A stretch of 63,999 bases of DNA, counting the filler, from Basidiobolus ranarum (Eukaryota), in NCBI GenBank assembly GCA_040143965.1. It is 28 parts of 28 records of this genome, joined end to end, with 100 filler letters (N's around TTAATTAATTAA, not from the genome) between each part and the next. Parts side by side here need not be neighbours in the genome. Positions count along the whole stretch, not along the records: positions 18,370 to 20,562 come from JASJQH010003653.1; 27 more parts are not named here. One strand, 5' to 3'. Made by a program: the position numbers and the translations under genes. Under the pieces are notes generated by a model that saw only the letters and a program-made list of their open reading frames with translations, ran no database searches and had not been told where the DNA came from. Positions 3,735-58,654 of the stretch are shown one piece after another. Position 1 is the stretch's first letter; each line of letters starts with the position of its first letter.

Positions 3735-4494
3735 ATAATAGGCATCATGTACATACTATTAAACATCATTCCAATACTAGTCACTCAGCTATATGGTGGA
3801 AAATTCAATATGAATGAGCCATATAAAATAGGATCAAAGTTTGAATTGATTGGGAAGGTGCTTGAAAACATCAAGCTACCTCATTTTCTACCAACACTCC
3901 CTCAATATCCACTCATCTAGGTGTTGATTTAAATGCAAAGCCTGGAAGTATTAGATTTGTATATATTGTAGTTGAGTATTGAAAAGATTTCTGCCTGATA
4001 AGTATTGGCAACATTGAGAGTTGTTTGTGGATATTGTTAATATATTCTTATAGCATCAACTCACATTGGCGGATCTCAGGCAGATACAGCAACTGTGCAA
4101 AGATTTTGTAATGGGATATGAAAAACCTTATTACAGGTTTAAAGCAGATAGACTGAATCTATGCTGGTATTCAATTTATTCCCTGCTGCATCATTTACAA
4201 TGCTTAAGGATTATAGGCCCTTGCTATACATTCTGGGAGTTCCCAATGGAGCACACCTGCAGTGAAATGCTGCTCTGTGTGAAATAATCAGTATTACCAT
4301 ATGCCAATCTGATTAGCCATGTATCAGCAAAATCAATGATGGATATTATGCCATGGGTTAAGGAAACTCCAGAGTTGACTAACCTTCCAACAGAGAGCTC
4401 TTTTCAATGTGCTTATGGGTTTTAGCATTGTTTGAGCACAATAACAACAACAAAGCCCAACCCATGGATACAGAGTAAGTATCTGTATAATTTA
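3735..4494 (+). pseudogene. CACTA transposase fragment (DUF4218-like region)
   Basis: LLHHLQCLRIIGPCYTFWEFPME; matches 31000-31527. Confidence 0.85.
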
Positions 4495-9847: not shown

Positions 9848-10916
9848 ATGTTCCGTTCCTTTGTGAAGTATTCCCTTCTGGCATCTGCTGCTGGTTTTGT
9901 TGCTGCCCAAGACCCAGGGGCAGGATTTATTTTCCAATGTGATAAGCCTGGCGGTTTCGCACTTACTTTTGATGATGGTATGGTTGATTCTATTGTAAGG
10001 AATGGCTAGTTTGGAATTACTAATGTGCTAGTGTTGTTTAGGTCCTAGTGAATACACCGGTACTCTATTGGCTACACTCAAAGAGAAAAGTGTCAAAGCT
10101 ACATTCTTCTCTGTCGGAACTCAAGCCGCAAAGGCTGATATCGCGAAATATCTAAAGCAAGCATATGATGAGGGTCACCAGATTGCCTCCCATACAAATA
10201 CTCACGCTGATTTGAACAAGCTAACTGCCAGTCAAATTGAAAGCGAAATGCTTCTTACTGAAAAAGCTATTGAGGGAGCTACAGGCCTGGTGCCAGCAGT
10301 AATGCGCCCCCCATACGGTAACTGTAATGCTCAGTGCCAAGGAGTTATGAAAAAGATGGGCTACTTAGTGGTACAATGGAATGTTGATTCCAATGATTGG
10401 CAATTCATGGATGCACCTGATAAGTGGGAATCTTTGATAACCAATATCCTCGACCCAGTAGGGAAATCCAATGTTCAGGCCCAATCATTCATTTCCTTAC
10501 AACATGACATTCACAAATTCTCTGTCGACAGAACTGCAGCCATTATTGATGGTATTAAAGCAAAGGGCTATAAATTTGAAACTGTCAACGAGTGTTTAAG
10601 CAACCGATTCCCCATGTATAAGAATCATGCAAATCCTACACCTGCTAATCAAACCAGCTCCGTGGCTCCTTCTTCCACCACAGTACATTCTTCCGCCGCA
10701 GTACATTCTTCTACTGCATCAGCTGCTTCCACCTCTTCGGCCCTGAAGCCTGCCTCTAGTGCATCAACTGCCACTCCTCCCAAACAATCAAGCAATAACC
10801 AGGCTGCAATCTCAGATACTGCAAATAAAATGTCAGGCTCCGGTTCTGCCACAACCGTACCTGCCTTTGGCATGGGATTGATGACCATCGCCTTGGCGAT
10901 CCAATGGTTATGTTAG
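9848..10916 (+). CDS. CDA: Chitin deacetylase (CE4/NodB), secreted, Ser/Thr-rich tail, probable GPI anchor; exons 9848-9977 and 10042-10916
   Basis: Signal peptide; TFDDG|P split by an intron; HTNTH, RPPYG, DSNDW, LQHD motifs; hydrophobic C-terminus. Confidence 0.93.
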
Positions 10917-14435: not shown

Positions 14436-14815
14436 TTGAAATTCTTAGATAAAGAACTTGCACATGCCAGATCAATCAGTATTGTGCCAGCTCAATACAA
14501 GATTAATATCATGCTCTCCATCTACTCTAAATGCTCATTCCTCATTAATCCAAAAGCAACTACTGGCTTTCCTACCACCACCCTAGAAGCTATATCTAAG
14601 AAATACTCTTGCTCACATATTCCAATACCTACCAGAAAGCTGCAAGTCAACTTGTTTTGTTACTACAAAACTATCGTCCAATCAGATTTCAGTGCACAAT
14701 TAATGATAGCAAAAGTGGGAGAAGCTTACATACCAGGCTTCAAGAAAGTGAGAAGTATCTAGCTTCAGTGATGAATGATGTTGAAGGTGCCTGGGACAAA
14801 AGACTTAGAGACTCT
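14436..14815 (+). pseudogene. PIF/Harbinger transposase N-terminal fragment
   Basis: Collinear with 28640-29000, which continues into DDE_Tnp_4 motifs. Confidence 0.7.
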
Positions 14816-15720
14816 TGAAAAGAGCCCCTTGTTGGAAGGTTAATATACTCTCTAGTCTCCTTAACCCATTGCATTAAATCAATCCTAGATTTTGCCAAAA
14901 CATTGTTAATCAGATTAGCATACAGCAATACTGATGATTTCACACAGAGCATCATCTCACCACAGGTGTGCCCCATTGGGAACTCCGAGAATATATAACA
15001 AGGGCCTATAATCTCTATGCATAGTGAAAGATGCAGCAAGGAATGTATTGAATACTGGCATAGATTCAGTCTACCTTCTTTAAACCTATAATAAAGTTTT
15101 TCATATCCAATTACAAAATCTTGACACAGTTGCTATATCTGCCTGAGATCTGCCAATGTGAGTTGATGCTGTACAAATGTATTAACAATATCCACAAATA
15201 ACTCTCAATTTTCTAATACTTATCAGGCAGAAATCTTTTCAAGATTCCACTTGAATATAAACAAATACCATACTTCCAGTGCTTGCATTTAAATAAATGC
15301 CTAGATGAGTGCATATTAATGGAAGTCCTGGTAAAATATGATGGTATCTTGACATTTTTGAGTGTTTTGCCAATTGATTCAAACTTTGTTCCTATTTTGA
15401 ATGGCTCATTTATATTGAATTTTCTACTATATAGCCAAGTATATAGTATTGGAATGTTGTTAAATAGTAAGCACATATTGCCCAATGGGAAGCTTTGGCT
15501 CTGGCTGATCCCCTTTAGCAATATTATCTTGGGCTTATGATGAATACCAAGTTTGATATTAGACTGACTATTTGGAGAATTGATATCAGTGATCATGTTG
15601 AAGTTTGACCAGGCTCTTGATGGTAAATCAACGAGTTTAGCATTGTACTTGGATAGTAGTAAAGCATATGCCTGATAGAGTAAACTCCATGTATTTTACA
15701 ACATCTACAGCAAAAAAGTG
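14812..15720 (-). pseudogene. CACTA transposase fragment
   Basis: Reverse homolog of 30710-31527 (KCKHWKYGICLYS..IGPCYIFSEFPM). Confidence 0.85.
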
Positions 15721-16075
15721 TATTGTGCCTGCAAAAACCTTCAGTGTTTACTGATGGAAGGAGTGGACTTGTTCTCTGTGATAGTGCCAGATTGTGCTGT
15801 ATACATCATATTGGATAAAGTGTTCCAAAATTTATGCGGAACAATTTGGCACTATCCATCACCCTCCGGCATGATCAATTTCAATCACATTTACTCTAAT
15901 ATATTGATCCAAGGTCTGATAAATCCTGGCACAATGGAACAAGTCCAATGTCACCAATACATACAATGATATTAGNNNNNNNNNNNNNNNNNNNNNNNNN
16001 NNNNNNNNNNNNNNNNNNNTTAATTAATTAANNNNNNNNNNNNNNNNNNNNNNNNNNNNNNNNNNNNNNNNNNNN

Positions 16076-18194
16076 CGAATCCAACCTTAAAGCCAAAGAA
16101 AACCAAATGGAAGAAACCAGACAGCTCCTCCTCCAGGAAGTCAATTCTCTTGGTGAACGCTTAGACGATGAAATTACAAATAAGCAAGAACTCATGAAAT
16201 CCAAAAAGAAACTCGAGATGGAACTTCAAGAACTTGCATTGAATGCTGATTCATCAGAAAGATCGAAATCCGATTTAGAGCAAGCCAAGAAAAGAGCTGA
16301 AAGCAACGTCCGAGATCTTCAAAACCAACTCGAGGCCGAGGGACGACTTCGCAAAAACTTCGAGGAGCTATCTGTTCGTCTCGAAAGTAAATCCAATGGC
16401 CTTCAGACAGAAGTGGAAAGACTAGAGCATCGTGTGGAAGAACTTGAACTCAAAAAGCGACAACTAGAGACTCGTATTGAAGACCTTGAATTTGAGCTAA
16501 ATGGTGGCGATGATTCTAAAGAAGCATTGATTGAACAAAAAGCTCAGTTTGAAAGGGAAATTCAAATTCTACACGAGCAGTTGGCTGAAGAACAAGAGGC
16601 ACGCGCCAACCTCGAAGCCGTTCAACGAGATATCGAACTAAGCAATGTGAAGAACCAAGTTAGGGAGGAAATGGAAGGAGAGATTGAAAATCTAAAGGAA
16701 AGTCGCCGCGCAGCGATGGCCACGATGAGACTTCTACAACAAGAACTTGAAGATAGAAAGAGTGATATGGAGAACTTCAACAAGCAAAAGAAAGCACTAC
16801 AAGACGAGATTGTTGATTTGAAGAATCGCCTTGAGAATGAGCATCTTACGAAATCGACCGAAGCCTCCTCTCGTCGACAAATCGCTTCCGAATTGAAGGA
16901 AGCTTTTATGAAGTTGCAGAATGAGCGAGCTAAATCATCTGAACTTGAAGAGGCCAATAAAACATATCGCTCTAGATATGAAGAAACCATGAATAGAATG
17001 GAAGCTGCGGAGATGGCCTTACTGAAGACTCAGAAGAGTGAATCAAACCTTAAAGCTCAACTGAACGAACTGGAGGCTACGTTGGAAACTGCTTTACTCG
17101 AGCGTAGCAGTGCTGAAGATTCTGTCAAACATCTTGAAGAGCAAATTCTTCATCTACAAGCTAAAATAGAAGAAGAAGCAATGGAGTATGCTGACATTTC
17201 CATGGTCAAAAATCGCCTTCAGGAAGAATTCGAATTGGCCTGTGAGAGATATCGCAAGGAAATAGAAGAACTCGAAACCGACTTAAACACGATGCGCAGT
17301 AAGTACCAGAATGAGCTAAGTCAACTTACAAGTGATTTGGAGGAAGAACGCACCAATGTCATACAATTACGCGAAAGCCGTCATAACCTTGAATCACATG
17401 TTGAAGATCTTAGCGTTCGACTTGAAGAAGAGCTTGGTAGTGCATCCATCTGGAAGAGAGAGGCCGATAGAAAAGAGGCGAAGTTGATAGAAACTACTAA
17501 ATATTATCATGAAGCCACTGCTCTTCAAGATAACCTTCAACGACAAGTCAACACTCTATCCAATCAGCTTCGGGACACTCGGATTTCGCTAGAAGATTCT
17601 GAAAGCCAACGCTTAACACTCGAGAAAACCAAAAAGAGCCTTGAACAACGCCTGGAGGAATTTGATGAAGAAGTCAGTGAAATCTCCAAGACTCGTCAAA
17701 CTATTCAAAGATCGTTAACTTCTCGAGATCAAGAAATATCTACCCTCCGCGAGCAACTGGAAGAGCAACACGAGAAGGTTGAAGACGCCGTTGATAAATT
17801 AAAAAGGGCCGAATTGGCCACTACAGAAGCCCAAAACGAACTAACTAAAGAGCGTGAGTCCAATTCGGAGCTAATGCGTGCCAAACTAACTCTCGAAAAG
17901 CAAGTCAACACACTTAACATTCGGATCGTTGAGTTGGAAACCAGCTCGCAAAGTAGTCGACATGCTGTTGTAGGCTCTCGTATTGGAGACTTGACAAGCT
18001 TCCTAAGTACTGAAGCTCGGGAGAAAAGTGAGTCCATGCGTCAAGTACGGAAAACTGAGCGTACCATTCGTGAACTTCAACATCAACTGGTGGATCGTGA
18101 AAAGAGCATCAACCGAATTGAAGAAGAAAATGCACGTCTTAAAAATCGCTTCGACAAACGGTTTAAAAGAAATATTTTGCGAAATAAATTTTAA
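16076..18194 (+). CDS. Myosin II heavy chain coiled-coil tail (5' partial; last about 12 codons doubtful)
   Basis: About 700 aa of E/K/L heptad coiled coil with myosin-tail end (RQVRKTERTIRELQHQL); normal CpG content. Confidence 0.82.
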
Positions 18195-18369: not shown

Positions 18370-18910
18370 TGTAAGAAAAGCAATAAACACCTGGTTGCTA
18401 AGATTGGATTGAACTCTTCACTCCTCAATAATTGAAGCTGCTTCCTTTGCTGTAAGTGTTATGAGTGGCCTAATGTTTGCCAATAACAAAGAGTCTGTAA
18501 CAAAACCATTGTCTCCTTCTTCAACTTCTGATATACTGCCATTGGTACTGGAACAACCAAGGTCAACATCTAGCAGCAAGTCCTCAAAGTTGTCTGGACT
18601 TCTTGGCTCAACCAAAGTTGCATTTTGACCTACATCATTCTGGTCATATAACTGGTAACTCCATGGTATCTTGACTTTTGGCAGTGTTACCAATATTTTG
18701 AGGCAAACTACAGTCAGTAGACTCAATGGGCAAAACTAAAGTTGATTTAGTGCACGTATTACTGTTGTTAAACACCAGGCTTTGTCCAGCTGGTGGCTTT
18801 GTACAGTGACCATGCTTGTGATTCTTTTTTCTATGAAGCCTTTGAATATCATAGCACAAGAATTTGCAACAATAATAGCAGGGCTTCTTTACCCTTTTGT
18901 GTTGTGGCAT
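18370..18910 (-). pseudogene. CACTA transposase N-terminus (ATG at 18910, Cys/His-rich)
   Basis: MPQHKRVKKPCYYCCKFLC..H; 18370-18575 matches the start of contig 29832, which runs into the Transposase_21 domain. Confidence 0.75.
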
Positions 18911-19122
18911 GAGAAGGGTAGTGTAGAAAAAAGAACAACTCCCATGTAAGGGTGGTATTTTAGGTGTAGCCCGTCAATATCATCAGCAAATTCCAAGAAG
19001 GTGTCACAAATGAGTCATCAGGGGATTCACAAGATATTTCCAGTAATGGATGGCAATTTTGACTTATTATAGGTTCTTTCTAAGTAATTTCATTACACCA
19101 AGTTTACCATCTGAAAATTTCA
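18911..19122. promoter_or_regulatory. Putative bidirectional promoter of the CACTA-type element
   Basis: About 210 bp between divergent starts; partial homolog at 59560-59730. Confidence 0.5.
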
Positions 19123-20545
19123 GTGCCATTAAAAAAGGGTTCAAAATCTAAGCCAAAGCCTGCTGGCAAGAAAGGAAAAAAACCAGCAAGAACAGAGGAC
19201 CTAATTGATAAGCAGTCTAACAATCCACTATCCACTTTGGAAGGCATTAACATGCCAGAAACTAACTCAAGTAATGATGAAGCATTAATCAATTTTCCAG
19301 ATGTGTTCCTTTCCAGCATTAGTGCAAGTGAAGAGATTGTAATCCCCCTATTACACAGTAAATCAATAGTTGAGCAAAGTTGAACTAAAACACCATCAAG
19401 ACCATCTACTTCCAAAATGGCTACTTTGCCCACTATAGAACAACCCTCCATAGAAAATTTGGTTAGAATTAATACAATAAGAGAATTGCAGGCGGAACAC
19501 CTTAATGATTTGTATGCAATTATAAGTAAAAACTATGAAGTTGCTCCACAGGCCATGATAAGCAATAATGCCGCAATATTGCAATTAATGCAGCCTTTGA
19601 AAGCTACTGGTCAACAGTTAGAGAGTCACTCAACAATGATACCAGACCTGCAGAATGCTGTACTTGAGCTACAGCAACATGCTGCTCCCTCCATCCATTC
19701 TCATATAGGATTTCAGTTAATCCCACACCATACATTCAAATGTCACCATGACAATCTATCAGATCAGAATATGGGTTGGACCATTAAGCCTACACAATGA
19801 CCAGAAATTGCTTAGTCACATGAAAGTAGAAATCTCATAGGAAAACTGGCAAACTAAAAGACTCTGGATGTCACAGCTGCCATAAGAAATTTCATTACAC
19901 CAACTTTACCATCTGAAACTTTTGATGCCATTCCAAAAGCATTTAAAATCTAACTCAAAATTGGCTTCCAAGCCAAAGCCTGCTGGCACTAAGGGAAAAA
20001 AACTAGCAAGTACAGAGGACGTAATTGATGAACAGTCTAGCAATGCTCTATCCACTTTGGAAGGCATTAACATGCCGGAAACTAACTCAAGTAATGATGA
20101 AGCTTTAATCAATTTACCAGATCTGTTACTTTACAGCAATAGGGCAAGTGAAGAGATTGCTATCCCCAAATTATGTAGTAAATCAATAGTTGAGCAAAGT
20201 TCAACCAAAACACCATCAAGACCATCAACTTCCAAAATGGCTACTTTGCCCCTGTTGAACAACCCTCCATAGAATATTTGGATAGAATTATTACAACAAG
20301 GGAATTGCAGGGAGAACCCCGTAATGATTTGTATGCAATCATAAGTAAAAACTAACAAGTTGCTATACAGGCTATGACAAGCAATAATGCTGTAATTTTG
20401 CAAATAATGCAGCATTTGGAAGCAACTTTTCAACAGTTGGAGAGTCACTCAGCAATGATACAAGACTTTCAGAAAGCTGTACTTGAGCTACAGCAACATG
20501 CAGCTCCCTCCCTCCATTCTCATACAGGATTACAAGCAGGCCCCC
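19123..20545 (+). pseudogene. CACTA-family ORF2 (uncharacterised), 5' half, two tandem copies (19123-19880 and 19925-20545)
   Basis: Basic N-terminus KPKPAGKKGKK, STLEGINMPETNSSNDEALIN, coiled coil ending LQNAVLELQQHAAP; repeated at 52710, 57273 and 59729. Confidence 0.75.
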
Positions 20546-20662
20546 CCCAAACAAATCCGCAGNNNNNNNNNNNNNNNNNNNNNNNNNNNNNNNNNNNNNN
20601 NNNNNNTTAATTAATTAANNNNNNNNNNNNNNNNNNNNNNNNNNNNNNNNNNNNNNNNNNNN

Positions 20663-21557
20663 TATTTTCCAAAAATTGCCGGATATTGAATAATGCATGC
20701 CAAATTTGAGGATCAATATTTTAACATGTATAAATACCATCAAAATACCATCAAGAAACTGCCATCACACCTTCAAAATCCCTGGAGAATGCAAGCCACC
20801 AATTTTGTGATGGTTCTCTGACAGTTGTGCTCTTTTGGAGGGTGTATCCAATCAAGATCAAATTGATTTTATTTTTGTTAGGGTGTGAGATAGATCTAGA
20901 TGCAGTATTATTGTTTTAGCTGTGGGGTAATCTATTCAAGCACTGACACATCTACTTGTGGCAGGACATTTGTTGACTGCAATTTGGGGATATATTGGCT
21001 GAAATCTTTACAGAAATTTGGCAAAATCCAAGAGCTTATTCCCATTGTGAATGGTAACAAGAGTCAGCTATTTGCCAAATGTCAGTACTATTCAAAATTT
21101 CAGATGTTTAGCAATTTTTTCACAATTAGTTTGCTGGTAAAGCATGTTGATGTTGTTGATTTATGTCTGATCAGTCAAGTATGTGCTTATGTAAAGACTA
21201 AACACAAGAAGATTGTAATACTTTTTGATTCTGATAATGACTGGAGTACAAAGCCAAAAGTATCTAAATAAAGGCATGCATATTAATTCAAATTCCTACT
21301 GCAGTAAACCCAGTAATTTACAATTAAAAAGTTATGTTTTTGCAAAAATTGCTGGAAATTAAATCACACATGCCAAATATGAGGAACATTATTTTAACTT
21401 GTGTGAATACTGTCAAGATACCAACAAGAAGCTACTATGACACCATCAAAATCCCTGGCAGAATGCCAGCCACCAAAAATGTGATGGTTCTCTGACAGTA
21501 TTGCAATTCCTAAGGGTGGATCCAATCTGGATCAAATTGATGTTATTTTTGTCAGGG
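20663..21557 (+). mobile_element. Two nested CACTA 3' ends: end B finishing at 20883, then transposase C-terminal exon plus end B finishing at 21557
   Basis: ...ATTTTTGTTAGGG and ...TTTTTGTCAGGG; exon GRTFVDC..KFGKIQELI..FAKCQYY. Confidence 0.82.
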
Positions 21558-21559
21558 TA

Positions 21560-22010
21560 CTTGTACAATGTGGAATCAGAAGATCAAAACTGGCTAGAAG
21601 TAATGACTAACTTGCTTGACAGCAGTTGATAACTTTGGTTGTACTAAAATTCTGCAGATTCTTATGATCACAATAGAATGTGAATGTGTGAGTTGCTCCA
21701 TCCAAGTATTGTTGCCATTGGCCAAATGATGCAACAATTGCTAACAGTTCCACAGCATATTTGATTTCCATGGCAGAGAACTTGCTTTTGCAAAAGGCAA
21801 CAGGGTGCAGTACGTTGTCATCACCATACTGTGATAGTACTGCACCTAGAGTAAAGTCATATGCATCAGTTTCAACAATAAATGGCTTGTCTAGTTTGGG
21901 GTGTACCAGTATTGGTGCTGAGGTAAAATCATTCTGTAACGTTTCAAATGCTTTTTGGCAAGATGAGTGCCAGTCAAATGAGAGTTCTTTCTTGAAAAGG
22001 TTTATTCATG
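21560..22010 (-). pseudogene. Ty3/gypsy RNase H fragment
   Basis: AFETLQNDFTSAPILVHP..PFIVETDAYDFTLGAVLSQ..HPVAF..ELLAIV..CDHKNL. Confidence 0.9.
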
Positions 22011-22215
22011 GAGGAGATTTTTACACCACCCAATGATAGCATCCTTCCATCAATTACTTTTACAAGGACTGGGCTAGATTTCTTGATTGTTTGGTGGAGT
22101 GGGATTTGGCAATGGGATAGTCAATAAACAGGAGGAAGCATCTGAATCAAGTAGTGCAGCTGTTATTATTGACTAGGAGTTTGGTAACAAGTGTGTAATG
22201 GCAGCTTTAATGATT

Positions 22216-22685
22216 CCCTAACAGAAATAAAATTGAATTGATCCGGATTTGATCCACCCTCCAAAATAGCAAAACCATCAGAGAACCGTCACAATATTGT
22301 TGGCTTGCATTCTGCCAGGGATTTTGATGGTGTGAGGATGGTTACTTGATGGTATCTTAATGGTATTCATACATGTTAAAATATTGATCCTCCAATATGG
22401 CATGTGTTATTCAATATCCAGCAATTTTTGTTAAAATATAATTTTCAAATGGCAAATTATTGGGTTTACTGGTGTAGGAATTTGAATTAATATGCATGCC
22501 TTTATTTAGATATTTTAGGCTTTGTATTCCAGCCATAATGAGAATCAAAAAACACAAGAATCTTGTTGTGTTTAGTCTCTACATATGCACATATTTGACT
22601 GATTAGACATAACTCAACAACATCAATATGCTTTACCAGCAAACTAATGGTTGAAAAATTGCTAAACATCTGAAATTTTGAATAG
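22216..22685 (-). mobile_element. CACTA end B plus transposase C-terminus, interrupted by LTR B (22686-22855)
   Basis: CCCTAACAGAAATAAAATTG at 22216; TATTGGGAAAATATGG at 22686. Confidence 0.82.
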
Positions 22686-29831: not shown

Positions 29832-32022
29832 TAGATGTTGACCTTGGTTATTCCAGTACTGATGATAGTATATCAGAAGTTGAAGAATATTTTGACAGTT
29901 TTGTTATGGACTCTTTGTTATTGGCAAACATTAGTCTTCTCATGTAACTTACAGTAAAGGAAGCAGCTTGGATTATTTAAAAGTGGAGAGTTCAATCCAA
30001 TCTTAGCAACCAGGTGTTTATTGGTTTTCTTACACTTTTACCATAGTTGATTGGCAACTGTTGCTTGCCACAGACCTGGTACAATGGAAGACATTTGTCA
30101 GTTGTATGACTAATAATCCTTCAGTACTTAAACTACCTTCATGTCCAAATGGTTGTTTGGCTTTCATTGGTTATCTGAGAAACCTGAAGTCATGAACTGT
30201 TTGAACACAATTGGCAATCACTGAATCAGGTAAATATTTTTCATATTTGGCTTACATACTGTTAATGCCCCAGCTTAAAGTTTTGATGAAATCAGCCAAA
30301 TATACATCTTGGATCCAATACCAAAGTACTCACCAAAAAGCTGATGATTTTCCCAATATAGCTGATGGATATCACTACCAGAATCTGAAAAGTCAAGGTT
30401 TCTTTGAGAACATGTATCATCATGCATTTGCATTGGCTCTGGATGGTTTCTTGCTAAACAAATATACCATTGGAAAGGCCTGCTGGCCAATAATTTTAAT
30501 TAACTTATATCATCCTCCTTCTGAACAGTATAAGAGTCCAAATATTCTGATACTCTCCATCATATCTGGACCTAAATTACCAGTACTTATAGATAGCCAC
30601 TTGGAGCCTTTGATTAGAGAATTTGAATTGCTATCTATTGGGGTACCGATGGGTGAATATTTTAATAAAACTAATATCATTGTATTTATTGGTGACACTC
30701 CTGCCATCAGTAAACTTGGAGGTTTTTGTGGGCATGATGCACAATCTTGCTGTAGATTTTGTCAAATCAACAGAGTTTACTCTAACAGGCATACACATTA
30801 CTACTATTCAAATACAACACTAAACTTCATGATTTTACCATCAAGAGTGTGGTCAGATTTCAATATGATCCTTGATATCGATTCACCAAATAGTCAGTTT
30901 AACATCAAACTTGGTATTAGCCATAAGCCTAAGATTATAATGCTAAAGGGGATCAGCTTGAGCCAGAGCTTCCCCTCGGGCACTATGCACTTACTATTCA
31001 ACAACATTCAAATAATACTAACTCAGCTATGTAGTGGAAAATTCAATATCAATGAGCCATTTGAGATAGAATCAAAGTTTGAATTGATTGGGAAAATGCT
31101 TGAAAATGTCAAGATACCATCATATTTTACCAGGACTCCATCAATATTCACTCATCTTGGTGTTTATTCAAATGCAAAGACTGGAAATATTGGATTTATA
31201 TATATTCAAGTGGAGTTTTGAAAGATTTCTGCCTGATAAACATTGGAAACATTGGGAGTTGTCTGCGGATATTGTTAATGTATTCTTATGTCATCAACTC
31301 ACATTAGCAGATCTCAGGCAGATACAGTGACTGTGCAAATATTTTGTAATTGGATATGAATAACTTTATACTGGTTTAAAGATGAGGGACTGTCAATATG
31401 CTGGTACTCAATATATTGCCTGCTGCATCTTTCACAATGCTTAGAGATTATAGGCTCTTGCTATACATTTTGGGAGTTCCCAATGGAGCACACCGGTGGT
31501 GAAATGATGCTCTGTGTGAAATCATCAAAAATTGCCAGACATTGAATAACTCATGCCAAATTTGAGGATCAATACTTTAACATGTTTGAATACCATCAAA
31601 ATACCATCCAGAAACCACTGTCACACCATCAAAATCCTTGGCAGAATGCCAGCCACCAATATTGTCATGGTCCTCTGACAGTTTTGCTATTTTGGAGGGT
31701 GGATCCAATATGGATCAAATTGATTTTATTTTTGTTAGGGCAATATCCACTCATCTTGGCATCTATTCAAATGCAAAGACTATAAGTATTGGATTTTTGC
31801 ATATCTGGGTGGAATCCTGAAAGGATTTCTGTTCAATAAGTATTGGCAACATTGGGAGTTGTTTGTCAATATTGTTAATAAAATCTCACTACATCAATGC
31901 ACAATGGCAGATCTCAAGCAGATACAGCAACTGTGCAAAGATTTTGTAATTGGATATGAAAAACTTTATTACAGGTTTAAAGAAGATAGACTGAATCTAT
32001 GCCAGTATCAATACTTTCCATT
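29832..32022 (+). mobile_element. CACTA/EnSpm transposase core (Transposase_21/tnp2 plus DUF4218-like), internal end B finishing at 31740, then a second transposase piece
   Basis: CPNGC; LALDGF..CWPIILINL.HPP..NILILSIISGPK.P..ID.HLEPLIREF; GDTPA; CRFC; WEFPME. Confidence 0.9.
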
Positions 32023-32636: not shown

Positions 32637-34312
32637 GAATGAGCTATTTTTGGGGCAATTTGGATGAGTTTGATATTTCCAATATGGAATTGCTAATTGT
32701 CACATTATTCACACATATATACATCCTAAAATAAATAATTAGATTTGCATTTCATACTATTGCCTTACTGTTTTATAATGGTATTATGCTGGTATTGCAA
32801 CAAGATTCTTATAGTTTCTCTGCCAGTCTTTTTTTCCTTCCTTTTTGTCATGGTATTCCTACCCCTATATTTGTGTTTTCTCAGGTTTTTCTCTGGTATT
32901 TGTTCTCCTATTTCTCATAGGGATAATATATGTTCCAATTTACAGTTAAGTGATATTTGACTTACTAATGTTAACTAACTTATAAGTGATATATTAAATA
33001 GTTAAGTGAATAAAGATTGAAATAATAACTATGATAAAGAAAAAAAACTTCAAAATTTTGTGGGAAGGTTGTTATAGTTTGAAGTCTTCTTAACCCATCT
33101 CATCACATCCATCACTAATTTTGCTGATAATTTATCAATCCTATCAGCATACAGTAATAATGATAATTTTGTATGGAGCATCATTTCACCACAGGTGCAC
33201 TCCATTGGGAACTCCCAGAATATATAGCAAGGGCCTATAATTGTCAAGCATTGTGAAAGATACAGTAGGGAATGTATTGAGTACTGGCATAGATTTAGTG
33301 TATGTTCTTTATATCTTTAATAACATTTTTCATATTCAATAACAAAATCATTGCCCAGTTGTTGTATCTGCCTCATATTTGCCAATGTGAGTTGATGCCA
33401 TAAGTATATATTCATGGTATCCACAAACAACTGCTAATGTTGCCAATACTAAACCCCTAACAAAAATAAAATTGATTTGATCCAGATTGGACACACCCTT
33501 CTAAAGCACAAAACAACTCAAGAATTGTCAAAGTATTGGAGACTTATATTGTGCCAGGGATTTTGATGGTGTGATGGTGGTTTCTTGACAGTATTCTGAT
33601 GGTATTTATACATGTCAGAATATTGACCCTCATATTTGGCATGCATTATTAATTTCCAGTAATTTTTTTAAAAATATAATTTTTGATTGGCAAATTACTG
33701 GGTTTACTGCTGTAGGAATATGAATTAATATTCATGCATTTATTCAGATATTTTTGACTTTGTATTCCAGCCTTAATGAAAATAAAAAAATACAAGAATC
33801 TTGTTGTATTCAGTCTCTACATATGCACATACTTGACTGATCAAACATAACTCAACAACATCAATATGCTTTACCAGCAAACTAATGGTGAAAAAATTGC
33901 TAAACTTCTGAAATTTTGAATAGCATTGACACTTGGCAAATAGCTGACTCTTGTTACTGTTCACAATGAGAATAAGCTCTTGGATTTTTGCAAATTTCCA
34001 TAAAGAATCCAGCCAATAAATCCCAAACTTGTAGTCAACAAATGTACTGCCACAAGTAGCTGTGTCATTGCCTGAATAGATAACCACAGTGCTAAAACAA
34101 TAATACTGTGTATGTCAATCTATCTCACCAAGAAGTCTGTCTTGCAGCTTACCTATAAATACCATCAAATTATTACCCAAACAAATTATTCCAGATTATA
34201 GAGGTACTTAGTCTGTGTCCATGGATTGAGCTTTGTTTCTGTTATTGTGCTCAAGCTATACAAAAACCATGAGCATCTTGAAAAGAGCCCTTTGTTGGAA
34301 GGTTCACATACT
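32637..34312 (-). mobile_element. LTR B remnant (32637-33054), CACTA transposase piece (33055-33450), CACTA end B (33455) plus C-terminal exons
   Basis: CCCTAACAAAAATAAA at 33455; IGPCYIFWEFPME; homology to the other copies. Confidence 0.8.
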
Positions 34313-36602: not shown

Positions 36603-37809
36603 NNNNNNNNNNNNNNNNNNNNNNNNNNNNNNNNNNNNNNNNNNNNTTAATTAATTAANNNNNNNNNNNNNNNNNNNNNNNNNNNNNNNNNNNNNNNNNN
36701 NNACTACAAATCTCCAGCAAAGCTGAATTTTTTATACTGGAAGCTTAAAAACATCAATAAGAGATATATTCTTCACACTATCTTGAAAGGGTAAAGACTT
36801 ACTTAGTATGTCAATAGCTTGAAGACTTTATGAGAAAAGATTATTTCTGATAATAGAACTTGCAAGAATCCTAATACTACAAAGGTACATAAAACTCTGG
36901 TGGTTTCTCTAACTTGAAGTCTGAAGAAAAAGATATAGTTCTTTTGAGATTGACAAAAACTATGATTAAAAGTTAGATATATTTTATGGCTGTAAAGGGA
37001 AGGTAACTATGAAAGAATCTGAACTGCAAACCTCAATAGTCAAGCCTAGTTGAGTTGCAATAGGAATCTTTATTATCTAACTATGATACAGGTTAGACTA
37101 TCTGGTTGAGGAAAGGATGAAGAATATGGTGCAGTTTTGGATGGTGCTGAGGCTAGAAGCTCTTTCACTAAGGGGAAGGGTTGCTTATATAACGAAATTG
37201 CTTAGAATAAATGCTATAAATTGGTGGTTGAGAATACATGCTATGAGTGGGTGGCTAAGCATTGAAATGCCAATAAGATCACTAATATGACAGCTGTAGC
37301 TTTGAAACTTTGAACACAATAGCATCAAGTACTGTTGCAGCTTTGTGCAAAATGTAAAGAGAATCCATCAGCCGGTTCAAGAGTTAGCACTAATTTTGTG
37401 AGCATCTTGAGTTCCTAATTCCTGTTTTCTGGATATATGCTAGTGGTGATATTTGTGTTGGCAATTTTAAAATAGTTGTAGCTCCACCAATATTTGATCA
37501 AATCTTACAATTCTTGCATAGTTGCAAAGTTCTAATTCAGGAGTTTTGATTGCAGCTTGCGTGACTGTAATAAGTCAAGTATTGCTGTGCTTGCAAGCAA
37601 TTAAATATTCTTGTTCTTTTTCTTGATCCCTAACATTTTATAAGATAGCAATAGATAATTTTCTTCCTACTTATTACATGGAAGATATTGTTGAAATATT
37701 TCTCACACTACAAGCTCCCCTGAGTTGATATATAATGCCCTCATTATATCCTTGGAAGTTCTGATCTTTTGTCGTGCCATCTTATCTCTTGTTGGATTCT
37801 TTGCTCTTA

Positions 37810-38706
37810 TTTCATCCAACAAAGATTTACATATTGTTGGTATGAACTCTTCTAGAACTCTGATCATTGCTCTTTGATATGTTTGCACTGAGTTAGTCCA
37901 ACCTTGTGGAATTCTGGTCATTCTGATTAAGCCAATTGGTGTATCCATTGCTGTATAGTCTCTAGAGTCAGGATGTAGCAGCAGTTGATCATATCCTGAG
38001 TATAGATCTAAAGTAGTGAGCAATGGATATCCAGAAAAGGACTCAATATACTCATGTCTAACAGGTGGTTGCATAGCATCTTTGATTGTTACTTTGTTTA
38101 GCTGCTGGACATCTTGAATAAATCTGAGTTTTCCATTCTTTTTGAGTGGTGTAAACCATGGATTTCTATATGGTCCATAGCTATATTCAATTACTCCACT
38201 TTTGAATCTAGACTTGAGCATACTGACAACTTGTTCCATCAATCTTGCTGGTATTGGATATGTTCTTAGTGCCCAAGGTACATGTTCTATTGTATGTATC
38301 TTCACTGGAGGAAAATATTTGGTTGATAAGCATCCTCTCTCTTCATCAGTGTAGGCAAAGACATGGTCATATTTCTTTAGCATATTCAAGAATAGTGCTT
38401 TCTCTTCTGTTGTTAAGGTTGTACCAAGATGAATTGCCTGTAATCTTTGTTCTGTAAGACAAGTTGTACTTTTCTTTAGTAGTTCCACTACTGCATCACT
38501 ATATTCAGCTGACGGATGCTTTCTGGATACTGGCTTTACTCTCTGACTTAGAGGCTTGTATTTTGTATTTGAATGTGGAGTTGTGTTTTTGGTTTAGAAG
38601 TATTGTATGTAAGCACTTGTCTCTGTTGTTCTCTGATAGCTAGTGGCTCATCTGAGAAGTTTCTGATATGTATACTTTCATTAGCACAGAAAGTAGTTCT
38701 TCTTTT
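37810..38706 (-). pseudogene. Ty3/gypsy reverse transcriptase fragment, bounded upstream by LTR B (38707-38892)
   Basis: PWFTPLKKNGKLRFIQDVQQLN, TLDLYSGYDQ, RIPQGWTNS; breaks off at the expected xxDD motif. Confidence 0.9.
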
Positions 38707-38992: not shown

Positions 38993-41180
38993 CATCAACA
39001 TTGTACGCTTTTGAGCCCCACTTAGGATCCACTTGTTGACTGGGATGAAGTGGGTCAACTGCATGTCCTTGCTGCCCTTCATTACGCTGTGCTTTGGCTA
39101 ATGCTTGTTCAGTAGCAATCGCAAGTTGATTGTCAAGGTTTGTCATCATCTCGATGAGCTTCTCCGGGACTACTTGCTCAATGACCTTCTTCACCCGTGA
39201 ATTGATGATGGGCGACAGTAGCTTGTACGTGGTATCCCGCTTAGATCCATGAATCTTCAGTTTGAGGTCATTCACCCGCGTGTTGCAGTCCAGAACCTTG
39301 TAGACATGCGCTTTATCCATTTCTGCCGGGTTCGTGTCCAATGTCATGTCAAGCTCAATCCCATCCTCAGGCATATTCAAGTCGATGTAGCCTACATCCG
39401 ATAGCTTGGGGAAGGTCTTCTTCTTGTAATAAAAGGCGACATTCGATGCTTCAACCTGGACATGTGTGAATTTGATGAACACCTTGTTGTGCAGGTTTTG
39501 CTTGGCATCAGGGTTCGTATCTAGGACGGTGTCGGTCTTCAGATGGACAAAGTTCGGGGCGATATTGCTGCACTTGATGACCACATTGTCCAGCACCATG
39601 TCTATCTTCTCATCGGATTGCTCAATACGTGGGAGTGGAAGATACTCCAGCTTCTGGGCTATGACTGGGATCAGTTTGGCAAAGTCTTTGATCAAATCAT
39701 ACCTGACGGTGGGATTGCCGCTGTCGTCGAGGAACAGACTTTGGGTCAACGCCTCAAGATCACTCGCAAAACGCTGGGTGGTGCGGTCCGATTGGATGGC
39801 TTTATTGAAATCGGACGCTTCCCGACTGATCTTCTCGAATTGACCTCGGTACTTGCCCTCGGCAATGTTGTGCGCACGCTCAATCAAGCGATTGGCATCA
39901 TCAGTGTATCCTTGACGGTCAACATACTCATTCTCACGGATTGAGCGAAGAATGAACGTCTTCACATCCTCGACATATTGGCTGAGATCTCTATCATTAT
40001 CCAGACGATCGGAGAGTTCCTTGAACGAGCTCAACAATGGGTCAAGTGATTTGTTGCCGGCGAAATTCTCCACAAGCTCCTTCGCATTGGCCTGCGCAAT
40101 CTCCAAGTCATCCGCTCCAGCTTCTTGTTTGGAGTTCGCTGTTTCCTGTAACTTGTCTGAGGTTCTCTGGCCGTGTCTCTTGAGACGCGAGAGAATATCC
40201 ATCAACTCGTCAACTGCCGACTGAAACTCAGGGTTCCCTTGTACCTCCCTCAGTACAGCTTTCATTCTGTTGATTAAATGGTCACGCTGCTCAGGGTTAA
40301 GCTCAACATTGGATAGCTTCTGTTCCAGACCTGTCTTCATTTCCTTAGCAGCACCAGTGACAGCATCCGTGGCTGAGATGTTCCCTTGTTCCGCTTGCTC
40401 TACATATGGTCGGGCTGTTTCCTTGGCCTGGAAATAGGTGGGTGCTGCAGCATCTCGTACAGTGGATTGCATAGTGTTGGCCGCTTCTCTTGGATCCATC
40501 TCATTCCCTTGCTGGTTTGCTTGGTGTGGGTCTGTTCTAGTCTGTGGATAAGTGGACTGTCCACTAGCTGGGTCCACGGTGGTTTGGCCCTGTTGTCCTG
40601 GATGTCCTGGAACATTGGACTGCACCACCTCTTGGAAAAGATTGGTCACATCATTGATCAGTCGACGGAACTGTGATGAAGTGACCAGCAACCAGGCCAC
40701 ACGAGAGATACGGTCGGCTCCTTCACTGGCAAGGTTCCCTGCCTCATTAGCCTGTCCCGCCAATTCACTGCGAGTCTGTTGTATGTCATTTCCTCCCTTC
40801 ATCGTTTGACCAGCCAGTCCGCTGTGATAGAGGGCGTTTTGTAATTGGTTGTCACTATTCTTCTCGGCGAGTATAGTCTGTGTTGACTCGACCAAGCGCT
40901 CAGCATTAGCCATCACCTTCTTCCCTGCTGGGGACATATTGGCTGCAGCATTGTGGAGTGAGTTATCCTCGGTGAGCTTGTTCAGCCCTTGGTTGATTTG
41001 GGTTGTGGTTGGAAGCTTCCCTTCTTGCAGGGCATTGCCCATTTGTTGTAAATGGTCTCTGGTCTGGAGGATTTCAGCTTGTTTAGTACCAGGTTTTGCT
41101 GGTAGAGTTTCCCCAGGGACTCCAATTTTGGTATTTTCATTGACGTTGACCGAATGGTCGTTACGATTAACAGAGTTATC
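38993..41180 (-). CDS. Uncharacterised fungal protein, DUF4449/HAM1-like (S. pombe C32A11.02c type), partial
   Basis: Open across the whole contig; GKLPTTTQI, LFLDDSGNP, YLPLPRIEQSD..DMVLDN, VAFYYKKK..D.G..D. Family recognised from memory. Confidence 0.72.
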
Positions 41181-41890: not shown

Positions 41891-43062
41891 ATGGTTCATA
41901 GTCTTATCAAGTACTCTATCGCTGTTGCTTTGTGCCTTAGTGCTGTCAGCGCTCAAGATTCTGGCAACGGCTTTGTTTTCCAGTGTGACAAGCCTGGTGA
42001 CTTCGCCTTGACTTTCGACGATGGTAAGCGTTATTTCAAATTGATCATTACCCTAGTGTTGTTTCATTCCTTCGACCCTTGACTTATTTCCTTCTTTTTC
42101 AATCTGTAGGTCCAAGTGACTATACTGGTAGCTTACTCAGCATTTTGAGCGAGAAGAATGTGAAGGCTACTTTCTTTGTCTTGGGATCTCAAGTTGCTGA
42201 CAGTGATATTGGTCATTTCGTCAAACAGGCTTATAATGCTGGTCACCAAATAGCTTCTCATACCTATGATCATCAGGATTTGAGCAGCCTTAGCGCCACT
42301 CAGGTGAGACAACAAATGCTTAAAACTGAGGCCGAGGTCAAAAAGCAAATCGGAGTTGCTCCTGCTATGATGAGGCCTCCTTACGGAAACTGCAACCAAA
42401 ACTGTCAAGCAGTGATGAAAGAACTCGGGTATTCTGTTATTCAATGGAACGTCGATTCTGATGACTGGAAATACATGAATAAACCCAGCGAGCATGACAA
42501 ACTCGTCCAAAACATGCTAGATGAGATCAACCCCTCTGACGCTAGCAAAGATAGCTGGATATCACTCCAGCATGATATCCACAAATTCAGTGTTGATAGA
42601 ACCCCAAAGATCGTGGACAGCATCAAGGCTAAGGGATACCGTTTCGTTACTGTTGCTCAATGCCTCAGTAACAGACTACCAGCTTACAAAGGCCAGTCTA
42701 TCACTCCTGAGACTTCATCTTCCACTGCTGTCTCCACTTCCGCTTCTTCTACTGTTCCTTCTGTTTCCACTACCGCCTCTGTTGTTGTTTCTTCTGCTTC
42801 GGCTTCCAGTGATACTTCTTCAGTCTCTTCTGCTTCCGGTGAAGCTTCATCAGTCTCTTCTACTGCTACTGTTTCCCCAAGTGCCTCTTCCGTTGTATCT
42901 ACTGCTGCCTCTTCAGAAAGTACTACTGACACCCAATTAACAACTAGTGCGTCCACTCTTCCCACTGTAGAAGCTGAGGCTACCAGCGGTGGCTTAGTCG
43001 CCTCACCCATGCTATCTTCCTCTTTACTTTTTGCCGCTCTAGCTTTCTTTGCTAGAATCTAA
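41891..43062 (+). CDS. CDA: Chitin deacetylase (CE4) paralog, GPI-type; exons 41891-42023 and 42110-43062
   Basis: Signal peptide, TFDDG|P with the same intron position, HTYDH, RPPYG, DSDDW, LQHD, Ser/Thr tail; TATAAA about 45 bp upstream. Confidence 0.93.
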
Positions 43063-45854: not shown

Positions 45855-48251
45855 AGTGGTAATTGTGTAAAATTTGAGTTACGTTTTTTGCACATGTGTT
45901 GATCCATAGTTCTCTGAGATTTTAGCCAATCATTTGCAACTATTTTGTGAGATCTTGAAATTTCATTCCTGAAACTGAAAAAATTGATTAAAATCAAATC
46001 TAACTTGACGTTTTTATGACGGTAAGTAAACGGTCAACCCCAAATGGATTAAAATTGTGATGGTTTTCCTAAGATAACAATCCTCAAATTTCTGTTAGGG
46101 TTAATTGTTTGAAAAATATCTCAGCATTGTTTACCCATGGTTCCCAATGCTTTGGGTATATATTAGATTTGCAACTTGTTAGTACACCGGTAAAAAGGTG
46201 GCATAGCCAGAACTTACAATTCATGCACTTCTATGACCTTTAACTGGCCTAAATGTGTAGAGCACTGGGTGAAATATAATAGGACTTGAATTTGCTCACT
46301 TTGTCTTCCTATTTCTCTTCAATGTCAAAGAGTTTATGAAGTCCAAATTTGTCCATGTAAAACTATGTCTTCAATATAGAGTGTCATTGAATCAAGGATA
46401 CATTGTCCACAAAGGAAAGCTGCTGGCCCAGTTAAGACTCTTGAATCAGACAATAGCTGGTTGATGATTAAGTTCTGACACTACTGTAAGCTCACTACTT
46501 GTTGTGCATGCCAAAACTATGTTGCATTCTCTTCAGCTTCCCCCTATTAAGTCAATCTTATGTGTGTTGATATTTGCATAATAGTAATATAAATTTTCCC
46601 ATGATTTCACTTCTTGAATCTGACCAGTTGGCAAAATAACTAGACATTGCGCATTGTGATTTGTTGTGTCCAAGTGAAATGTGGGTAAAAAGTCTCAATC
46701 TTTACCAAACAAAATAAATGCTTAGGTACAGAATCTCAGAACCCTTTAAGCAGAAGATACTGGCTGAGCAGATCAAACCAATATAAATGTGTGAGGAATA
46801 GCAGTGGATTGCTATGTTAGGGTAGAGAGTAGGTTTGCAAAGCTGCTAGGCTTGGTGTTCTGTAGATGCTGATGAGTACTAGGCTTCGATAGAAATGAAA
46901 GGGGAATATGGAATTTGTTGTGTCACACACTTTACCAAAATATTCAGTTACCCTGATAGAAATTTGAGGATTGTTATTGTACTTACCATGATAAAATTAT
47001 CAAGTTATGTTTGATTTTGATCAATTTTTTCAGTTTCAGGAGTGAAATTGCAAGATCTTGCAAAATAGTTGCACATAATTGGCTACAATCTCAGAGAACT
47101 ATGGATCAACACATGTGTGAAAAACATGACTCAAATTTTCCACATTTTTGACTTGAACTCTGATTTATTATCTTTGAAATTCCTAGTTCCTTTGACATAA
47201 TTTCCTGAAGATTGTCATAGAGTTCTTCACACCCAAGGTTTAGCTCACATCCAACACAAGTTTATATCAATGTATCCATCAAAGCCCACCATTGCATTAA
47301 TGCTGCTGAATCAACATTCTTCCAGCTATCTGGCAGATATGCTGCAATATTGTGCCACTCTGTATTATGTTCTTCCCAGATATCTGCATGGTCAACATCA
47401 GACTGAATGTCTAGTTCAATGTTCTTCCTCTGAAGACACTTTCTGCATACTTGCACTGTGATTTCCCTTGCTACTTTTGAAAATACTCCTCAAGTACTTT
47501 GACTATTTTTATACTTCATAGTAGTGTGACACCACTAAGGGTGCTTTGGTGTATTTGTGTGGGTTTTGCTTGCCTTGAACTTTTATACATCCTTAATACA
47601 TAACACTTCTGAGGGTGCTTTGCAATGTTTGTGTGGCTTTTTGCTTGCCTTTAAGCTTGGGGCTATTTTCAACACTTTGAAAAGTATCAGTTGAGATTGG
47701 ACAGCTGTGAGTTTTATTTGCTGGTGTTTTGGCTTGTTGAGAGTTGCCAGGTGTTGGATAAACTTCCAAACTTAGCATACTTCTGATAAAAGTGTTAAGG
47801 GGATTTAGAAGTGCTTTGGACAAGATTTGGATTTGTGAATTAGACACTTAAGTTTTATTGAATTGAATATGTCCTATTTATAGTTTACTATGAAATAGAA
47901 CTTTTGGACATGCTTAGATCATAACAAATATGCCTGTTAAGCATGGGTGAAAATTTGAGGTGATTTGGAGAAGTTTTGAGAAAATAGTGAAAATTGGTAA
48001 AAGTGATCTAATTGATATTTCTATCAATTAGAGCAATAAANNNNNNNNNNNNNNNNNNNNNNNNNNNNNNNNNNNNNNNNNNNNTTAATTAATTAANNNN
48101 NNNNNNNNNNNNNNNNNNNNNNNNNNNNNNNNNNNNNNNNAAAATCAAATCTAACTTGACGATTTTATGATGGTAAGTAAACGGTCAATCCCAAATGGAT
48201 TAAAATTGTGACGGTTTTCCTACGATAACAATCCTCAAATTTCTGTTAGGG
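45855..48251. mobile_element. TE mosaic over two contigs: CACTA end A (to 46100), LTR D piece (46662-46950), CACTA end A plus ORF2 3' part (46951-47783, ORF on minus), LTR C (47784-48040), CACTA end A (48141-48251)
   Basis: TIR matches; ORF2 peptide WEEHNTEWHNIAAYLPDSWKNVD..QWW. Confidence 0.8.
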
Positions 48252-48799: not shown

Positions 48800-50326
48800 A
48801 CATGAAATGATAAGGGAACTCCTGCTGTGATTTAATTCACTTTGGGCCTAAATTGATGAAATTTTGAATAATTTAACACTGCCATTGATTGGTGTTGATA
48901 CAGGCTTGCTATTCTCAATGTTGAAGCAATTTATGATGACTAGGATACATTGAGACTGATGCTGCAAGATTTTCTGACTGGGATTATCTCTCTTGATTTG
49001 GTCTCCAGTGTAATAGCTTGATTCACCTGCATCATTCATCTGAAATTGGTTTGATAAGCTGCTTTTTTCTGATCAAGTGCTTGTAGATATTTGTGGCAAT
49101 GATCAAATCATCCACATATAGTGGCAAGTTAAGGATCCTATTTCTGGTTGTTTTGATGTACTTATTGTGATCTGCTCTGCATATTTGGAATTCCAGTGAT
49201 TCCAAATATTTATCAATCTTGTAGTAACATGCCCTGGGTGCTTGCTTGAGTCCACATAGCCATATATTTAGCTTCACAGACCATATCAGGGTTGTTTGTG
49301 TCAGCAAATTCATCTGGTTGTTCCATACAGTAATCTTCTTCTATACTTCCATTTGATATAAATCAAGGTTATGGATAGGTGAAAGTGCCAGACTTGATAT
49401 TATGAAGCTAAACTAAGCTATTTTGCATATTTTTCATTAAAATAAACCCCTGCAAGTCTGGAATAACTTTTGCAACAAATCCTCCTTGATGGTCCCATCA
49501 GCCCAGTTTTTGACTTTGTAAAAGTATTTTCAACCTATAGGCATTCTTCCTGATTGTAGAGGCCTTCAAACCTGTATTTTATAGTGCTGAGGTAAAGAAA
49601 ACACATCATACATTGCTTTTTTCCATAATTTTGATTATGAACACTCCAGAGCTTGATCTAGAATCTCTGACTTATAATACAATGGTGCATATGCATATAC
49701 AACATCATTGGAAGTGTTCCACCAGTTGCCTGGCTTATTTCTCCTTCTGGACATTCTTCTGGGTCCTGGATCATCCTCTGATGTAAGAGGCTGGAATTTT
49801 GTTTGAATTGGGCTCAGATAGAGCTAGAAATTATTCAGACACTGCCTTGATAGTGCTGATTGTGTTTTCTGGATCAAGAATGATGATTTGAGGTGAAAAT
49901 TAAATTTTTTCTTCAAAAATACATATCTAATGTTCTTCTTCTGAAGCCACTTTCTGCATACTTGCACTGCATTTTTCCCTGCATACTTTGAAAATACTCC
50001 TCAAGTACTGTGACTGTTTTTGTACATCCTTGTAGTGTGACACTGCTGAGGGTGCTTTGTGGTGTTTGGGTAGCTCTTTGCTTGCCTTTACCTTTGGGGC
50101 CAATTTCAACAATTTGAAAATTACTAGTTGAGGTTGAAGAGCCGTGAGTTTTATTTGCTGGCATTTTGGCTTGTTGAGAGATGCCAGGTGTTGGATAAAC
50201 TTCCAAATTTAGCACTCTTCCAACTGGTGTACCCAGTTCCATGATGAAATTAAGCTTTTTTGTCAGTATATCTAATTCTGGAAATGCAGATCTTTGTAAT
50301 GGTGTGAAGAATTTGGTAAGTGGGAC
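48800..50326 (-). pseudogene. Copia IN-RT remnant (48800-49910) and CACTA ORF2 fragment (49915-50326)
   Basis: LCGLKQAPRACY..LYVDDLIIA; LEVYPTPGISQQAK. Confidence 0.8.
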
Positions 50327-54630: not shown

Positions 54631-54661
54631 GTTATTATTGAAATTATTTGAGGAGAAATAT

Positions 54662-54734
54662 TGGTCTGCCCAGAATTTGAACCTGGGACCTCCTTCACTC
54701 TAGCATGGTGCTCTAACCACTAATCTACCAGTCC
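54662..54734 (-). pseudogene. tRNA-like sequence (73 nt, degenerate cloverleaf) embedded in a repeat
   Basis: GGACTGG TA GATT AGTGGTTA GAGC A CCATG CTAGAGT GAAGG AGGTC CCAGG TTCAAAT TCTGG GCAGACC A; A and B boxes present, T-arm pairs, other stems mismatched. Confidence 0.7.
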
Positions 54735-58650: not shown

Positions 58651-58654
58651 ACTT

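Follow-up and report, generated by a model that had tools for sequence, protein, structure and literature searches.

TRC elements carry a Transposase_21 transposase between ends that begin with CCC, and they generate 2-bp target duplications (PMC1636069; Spongebob, PMC4298943). Those described from Schistosoma mansoni (SmTRC1), Tribolium and Aedes are 4.5-5.2 kb long and have many truncated copies; the Tribolium element starts with CCCTA and measures about 5.2 kb, and second proteins of TRC elements arise by same-strand alternative splicing (DeMarco et al. 2006, PMC1636069). Maize En/Spm and plant CACTA elements likewise combine a Transposase_21 transposase with a second protein and with short terminal and repeated subterminal motifs. 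Their ends read CACTA, and TnpA and TnpD are encoded in one same-strand transcription unit. In maize, TnpA is essential for transposition and also reactivates a methylated promoter, and TnpD stabilises the binding of TnpA to DNA (PMC1636069).

Among fungi, EnSpm families with a TET/JBP second gene have CAC..GTG ends, 3-bp duplications and lengths of 8-24 kb (Kojima 2025, PMC12730594). The CMCT clade, as defined in the same source, is recognized by the DDE residues together with C(2)C and H(3-4)H motifs that lie after the second D and before the E, and Plavaka termini are given there as TGT..ACA or CATCA..TGATG. For the genus Basidiobolus, 'huge expansions of CMC-EnSpm' were reported by Muszewska et al. 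2017 (PMC5751038), in passages that provide counts only and from which ends, layout and a second gene are absent.

The window analysed is a stretch of 63,999 nucleotides in which 28 unrelated contigs of about 2.19 kb each, taken from a 65-Mb Basidiobolus ranarum assembly of 13,754 contigs, are joined with N spacers between them. Pieces of a single EnSpm family are present in 13 of the 28 contigs (15,394 of 61,299 bases, about 25% of the window bases), and when pooled they span the entire element. An earlier note on this DNA had arranged fragments from about 14 contigs into one layout; the layout stands, with the count lowered to 13. The element is about 5.2 kb long and consists of end B, a transposase gene that is read toward end B, a 212-nt spacer, a second gene (ORF2) that is read toward end A, and end A itself. 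A majority sequence of about 5.2 kb, computed from fetched genome copies, was used to map the pieces, which are as follows (window positions and strand).

2100-2197, minus: end A.
3739-4492, plus: transposase fragment.
14815-15765, minus: transposase fragment.
18370-18910, minus: transposase 5' part with a Cys/His-rich N-terminus, broken after about codon 88; ATG at 18910, the core continuing in 29832-31527.
18911-19122, no strand: 212-nt spacer between the two start codons; the same arrangement is found in most of 30 loci.
19123-19881, plus: ORF2 5' part with the basic N-terminus, coiled-coil-like stretch and start of the middle domain; GTG start, several stops.
19883-20556, plus: frameshifted tandem repeat (ATG at 19925) of the end of the spacer plus the 5' part of ORF2, 85% identical to 19081-19715.
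20665-22685, no strand: three end-B pieces (20665-20883, 20885-21557, 22216-22685).
29832-31527, plus: transposase core of another copy (Transposase_21 region), overlapping the contig that starts at 18370.
31526-31740, minus: end B, flanked by the transposase gene of another copy (31741-32019).
33057-33450, plus: transposase fragment of the copy that received the end insertion at 33455.
33455-34312, plus: end B with terminal repeat and subterminal TGACGG-type repeats, and transposase 3' part (minus) with the predicted 58-nt intron.
45855-46100, plus: end A.
46962-47783, minus: ORF2 3' region, two overlapping pieces.
48141-48251, plus: end A.
49929-50326, minus: ORF2 linker and start of the C-terminal domain.
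52714-53853, plus: ORF2 middle region (coiled coil, middle domain, linker).
53855-54636, plus: end B and transposase 3' part, inserted in the preceding ORF2.
57273-57589, plus: fragment of the ORF2 coiled-coil region.
58654-59452, plus: transposase 3' region near end B.
59555-60917, plus: spacer, ORF2 5' part, internal deletion of about 850 bp, ORF2 C-terminal domain and end A.
61832-62489, plus: ORF2 C-terminal domain and end A.

The contig that starts at 18370, which the earlier note had singled out, does hold both gene starts, with the transposase ATG at 18910 on the minus strand and the ORF2 start at 19123 on the plus strand, 212 nt lying between them. This copy has GTG as its ORF2 start codon, where the family has ATG. 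This is a dead copy in which stops or frameshifts break both open reading frames, and it contains a tandem duplication of about 800 bp that was missing from the first account: positions 19883-20556 are a second copy, 85% identical to the first, of the end of the spacer together with the 5' part of ORF2. Tandem repeats of this kind occur within single contigs at window 19081-20556 and at genome loci L113 and L031, and they may have originated by unequal recombination, nesting or misassembly. The overlap proposed between 18370-18575 and the contig at 29832 exists (18370-18572 with 29832-30034, 85% identity), and 33455-34312 and 58654-59452 (58655 in that note) indeed carry the transposase up to end B. 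The segment previously given as 59553-60917 does extend to end A, but about 850 bp of the ORF2 middle are absent from it.

The two-gene layout is independent of any joining of contigs, because three genome loci show it within one contig each. The first (L032) extends from the 3' part of the transposase gene to end A, and the second (L117) runs from end B onward through both genes and stops about 70 bp short of end A. The third (L120) carries both genes between both ends, with internal deletions and with flanks from two sites, and thereby places ORF2 and the transposase inside the same pair of terminal inverted repeats. These single-contig copies and the Transposase_21 match described below uphold the original proposal of a CACTA/EnSpm-type element with two divergent genes in one end pair. 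None of the genome contigs examined held a copy that was complete and free of deletions between its two ends, and no inward-facing end pair was present in one contig among the first 100 exact matches listed per end.

The terminal inverted repeats are 13 bp long, match at 12 of 13 positions and start CCCTAACA. The ends are sharp in 110 end-B and 117 end-A flanks. An exact 25-mer of end B occurs 445 times in the genome and an exact 23-mer of end A 529 times, compared to zero for the reversed controls, and therefore these matches are not due to chance. The element belongs to the EnSpm/CACTA (CMC) group of cut-and-paste DNA transposons and is present in high copy number. In a DNA sequencing run, the summed contig depth over the element reaches 121,000-421,000 in most bins, whereas single junction contigs have depths of about 20-50. 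This depth is not a copy number, but it points to copies in the thousands, the majority of which the assembly has collapsed, and the family probably makes up a large share of the host genome. Element contigs from an animal gut metagenome (run X6) cover 29 of 30 bins, which fits a gut-dwelling host fungus. Low-depth element pieces (depth 2-6) from runs X2 and X3 were not accepted as evidence of other hosts.

The transposase frame has 753 codons before its first stop. A GT..AG intron of 58 nt is predicted just upstream of that stop; its GT and AG are kept in 15 of 18 captured copies, where its length is 57-59, and a one-base length polymorphism sits within it. We prefer the intron reading and have set aside the apparent stop as the true end of the gene. 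Removal of the intron from near the 3' end of the transcript would give a predicted product of about 878 aa. Comparison of the second exon with P0001, the only distant full-length relative found, gave no match at the C-terminus (104 of 300 shuffles scored as high), and a word-based protein search with the transposase returned one match.

A natural frame of 407 aa (L022) matches the Pfam family Transposase_21 (PF02992) with 47.2 bits against a cut-off of 28.6. This frame alone passed, and Pfam scans of short broken pieces gave no match. Of 150 scored matches in the genome, all 30 that were fetched come from this element's family. The D, D, E-type, C(2)C and H(3)H motifs are readable in natural open frames (L022 and L102), with catalytic roles of the D, D and E residues assigned by motif. 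Its domain, motifs and terminal repeats are those of the CMCT clade of the EnSpm superfamily, and its place in the EnSpm/CMC group is well supported. Several diverged Tnp2 transposase families, whose proteins are 26-63% identical to the transposase of the element, are also present in this genome.

Judged by its ends, the Basidiobolus element is closest to the TRC elements, with which it shares Transposase_21, CCC ends, a similar length and many truncated copies. The novelty of the CCC(TA) ends was overstated in the earlier note, given the animal TRC elements and particularly the CCCTA start in Tribolium (PMC1636069). The difference from TRC elements lies in the second gene, which is a separate, back-to-back gene of 585 codons and of an unnamed family on the opposite strand, and possibly in the target duplication. 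Compared to plant CACTA elements, the termini read CCCTAAC instead of CACTA(A/G), and the two genes lie on opposite strands 212 nt apart rather than in one transcription unit. Like the TET/JBP-bearing fungal EnSpm families, the element has a second gene and a fungal CMCT transposase in which C(2)C and H(3-4)H are present (PMC12730594). Unlike those families, it lacks CAC..GTG ends and a length of 8-24 kb, Pfam searches of ORF2 gave no match to a TET/JBP dioxygenase, and its two open reading frames fill the 5.2 kb. Its CCC ends also differ from both forms of Plavaka terminus (PMC12730594). The element does not reveal a new transposition chemistry, and its superfamily, its CCC termini and its expansion within the genus were known before. 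Our search of the literature, outside Repbase and Dfam, found no description of a CCC-ended EnSpm element whose second gene stands back to back with the transposase.

A single frame of 585 codons makes up ORF2, and one natural copy (L113:1575-3329) has no indel and five stops. Two apparent frameshifts were rejected as alignment artefacts of the majority sequence, since stop-free natural pieces span both places. The N-terminus is basic, with 11 K or R among the first 30 residues, and is followed by an acidic and Ser-rich stretch and then by a segment that appears coiled-coil-like when judged by eye. A conserved middle domain (about residues 233-335), a low-complexity linker and a Trp-rich C-terminal domain (about 465-585) complete the protein, and the middle and C-terminal domains are unlike each other. 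A 379-bp AT-rich insert lies within ORF2 at L011:153-532.

The earlier note recognized no family for ORF2, and we concur, as there is no Pfam match above the cut-off and no PDB sequence match. A HMMER search of 1.84 billion representatives produced 13 matches, comprising eight B. ranarum fragments and five unnamed ENA/Logan proteins. Some Basidiobolus ranarum proteins that are nearly identical to pieces of ORF2 are annotated as hypothetical proteins. Word-based protein searches with the middle domain gave no long matches and six near matches. For the C-terminal domain, a metagenome scan returned one locus among 253 stretches, over 14 residues and judged to be chance, and a viral scan returned none in 48. 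A stop-free ORF2 piece of 257 aa (P0021) carries an Ascosphaera pollenicola annotation on a 1,000-bp contig; it is 97% identical to L002 across their overlap, and contamination is likelier than transfer.

Diverged relatives of ORF2 (P0017, P0009 and P0019) share its domain order, from the basic start through the coiled coil, the middle domain and the linker to the C-terminal domain, with P0009 having 34% identity to ORF2 over 222 aa. An older sister family that bears ORF2 is also present in the genome, with 40-55% identity to P0019 and with copies 65-85% alike. Loci of the sister family and of the diverged Tnp2 families include L314-L319, L322-L346 and L347-L354, the last of which (L354) has an end-B-like terminus at 69% identity. 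At L346, a diverged ORF2 and a diverged transposase are arranged back to back with their starts deleted, although this is a single deleted locus. At L334, a diverged transposase and an ORF2 piece lie on the same strand, an arrangement that nesting can explain and that offers no support for the layout.

Predicted models provide some additional clues for the middle domain. A feature comparison gave three unnamed basidiomycete clusters at 0.88-0.89, below the 0.9 line. The Atlas comparison sets predicted models against each other, and does so for the relative P0009 rather than for ORF2 itself; there, the middle-domain model has TM values of 0.71-0.75 to three unnamed basidiomycete clusters and of 0.62-0.63 to the NOL4 helical domain (Pfam HTH_NOL4_2nd), the latter below the bar for naming a family. 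A BEN-like fold may be guessed for the middle domain; Pfam and PDB sequence searches gave no match, and the nearest named model match is the NOL4 helical domain. No literature linking NOL4 and BEN was found. The C-terminal domain is predicted to be all-helical in a poor model (mean pLDDT 53). Fold searches with it found nothing clear (best Z 4.9, Foldseek E >6) and, owing to the low confidence of the model, are uninformative on whether the fold is new.

The resemblance of the middle domain to predicted models of unnamed basidiomycete proteins would be expected if ORF2 were a captured host gene with no role in transposition. Likewise, a deleted copy (L072) retains both ends without ORF2, indicating that ORF2 is unneeded in cis. 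However, the 13 HMMER matches among 1.84 billion representatives include no host-type donor, and ORF2 persists with its domain order in diverged families. This retention makes plain captured cargo the least likely of the roles raised in the earlier note, and we regard it as highly improbable. Selection on ORF2 is visible between families only and not within this one, because the copies differ from one another to a similar extent at all codon positions, which is what dead copies would show.

TGACGG, which contains a CpG, occurs 10 times in the element. Seven of the occurrences are in the 514 subterminal bases and three in the 4,661 inner bases (p 9e-6, an optimistic value because the motif was picked after looking and on a CpG-restored majority sequence). 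The element thus has a repeated subterminal motif, as do plant CACTA and En/Spm elements. CGTCA repeats, which have the same core as TGACGG, are found near the 5' ends of the fungal elements EnSpm-2_PSt and EnSpm-3_PSt in their first 400 bases (PMC12730594).

The enrichment of TGACGG at the ends and the predicted resemblances of the middle domain lead us to favour, at slightly better than even chances, the reading that ORF2 is a DNA-binding helper of the element and a putative functional analogue of plant TnpA. Of the roles considered earlier, this one has more indirect support than the others. The domain order shared by diverged relatives, the back-to-back orientation at L346, the basic N-terminus and the maize analogy also speak for it. 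The Pfam searches weigh against it, as they gave no TnpA-type match in ORF2 or its relatives. So do the absence of a PDB match, the poor model of the C-terminal domain, the NOL4 values below the naming bar and the uniform divergence over codon positions.

The 212-nt spacer is likely a single bidirectional promoter for both genes. If ORF2 is such a helper, its basic N-terminus would direct nuclear entry, and the protein might self-associate through its coiled-coil-like stretch. Its helical middle domain would bind the subterminal TGACGG repeats, so that ends and transposase assemble. Host methylation at the CpG of this repeat would be expected to block binding and could serve as an off switch, after which decay of methylated CpG would inactivate the element copies. 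Internally deleted copies that retain both ends might be moved in trans.

VANC proteins act as anti-silencing factors for VANDAL elements, and ORF2 might mainly serve such a purpose by binding CpG motifs, locally removing or blocking methylation and keeping both promoters active. CpG loss is almost total in the repeat contigs of the window. The observed/expected CpG ratio is below 0.15 in 18 of the 28 contigs; repeat contigs have values of 0.01-0.12 and ten other contigs 0.48-1.05, and gene-bearing contigs keep their CpG. Across 221 pieces of the element, half of the CpG bases are gone at the median, and CpG retention is lower as divergence is higher (r -0.64), a decay that is equally in line with the helper reading. 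Non-CpG divergence of these pieces from the majority sequence is 0.6-16%, with a median of 5.4%.

That the repeats are nearly stripped of CpG, and yet the family is of very high copy number with young pieces at 0.6-1.5% non-CpG divergence, speaks for a means of avoiding silencing. The TET/JBP genes of fungal EnSpm elements are thought to aid escape from methylation (PMC12730594), and the promoter reactivation by maize TnpA also points in this direction, although it overlaps with the helper reading. On the other hand, a Pfam search revealed no TET/JBP or other enzyme domain in ORF2. TGACGG is found mostly at the ends, with three of ten occurrences inside and no exact copy in the spacer, and even the youngest pieces have lost CpG (17-52% of consensus CpG bases in the eight least diverged). 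An anti-silencing function as the main role of ORF2 remains a rival to the helper reading, but we consider it unlikely.

The copies in the assembly are dead and nested in one another. For the target duplication, when flank pairs at most 20 bases apart on the element are compared, the most frequent overlap is four bases (3 of 17), and none overlaps by two, three, five or six. With all references included, an overlap of four is seen in four of 27 pairs, of three in two and of two in one; one flank enters these counts twice. When flank composition was tested for symmetry, 3 bp (p 0.78) came out ahead of 2 bp (0.25) and 4 bp (0.04), and 2 bp was not excluded. The ORF2-less copy at L072 lies inside a copia element, where a fit to 4 bp requires that CpG decay and a degenerate end be assumed. 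Loci L116 and L120 yield no duplication, since both ends are present with flanks from different sites. A duplication of 4 bp is slightly favoured, and 4 or 3 bp fit better than the 2 bp of TRC elements (PMC1636069). One pair of end Bs in opposite orientation overlaps by four bases.

Heavy nesting might also be explained if ORF2 served in targeting, by anchoring the transposase to heterochromatin or other repeats. Among 227 sampled end flanks, 69 map to the element itself and 148 to some collected repeat, and six end pairs in the flank sample (L127-L266) each coincide at a single base of a host repeat, as insertion hot spots would produce. However, with the family occupying about a quarter of the window bases, nesting near 30% would be expected without any targeting. 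The same-base pairs may each represent one insertion that was duplicated along with its host, and many ends adjoin long contigs. We therefore find a targeting role very doubtful, and continue to favour ORF2 as a DNA-binding helper.

A broader synthesis would hold that the element represents a distinct CCC-ended EnSpm lineage of early-diverging fungi, with 4-bp duplications, a two-gene switch built on a bidirectional promoter, and ORF2 as the founder of a methylation-sensitive DNA-binding and anti-silencing family. This combination is distinctly unlikely to be correct in full. If it were, the middle domain would explain unnamed basidiomycete families and would link the helical domain of animal NOL4 to a transposon origin. 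EnSpm helpers outside plants are poorly described, and ORF2 is a compact candidate with a predicted CpG-containing motif. An accurate element model should also aid repeat annotation, because the family accounts for about a quarter of the window and probably for a major part of the genome, and its fragments have already been deposited as 'hypothetical proteins'.

Other sequences were noted during this work. A solo-LTR-like insert of about 280 bp, with TG..CA ends and a 5-bp duplication, is present at L096:5036-5317 (G000:C7645) and L039:~2474-2754. It carries a tRNA-like sequence (ARAGORN tRNA-Ser at L096:5061-5133), and words resembling the insert occur near window 54700-54760. Window 37706-38593 and several other contigs hold a reverse-transcriptase (RVT_1) fragment and copia-like fragments that serve as insertion hosts of the element. 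Host genes in the window encode a myosin tail (16077-18191), a HAM1-like protein (38994-41180) and a polysaccharide deacetylase (42028-43059), and another deacetylase-like frame, recognized by visual inspection alone, lies at about 10032-10913.
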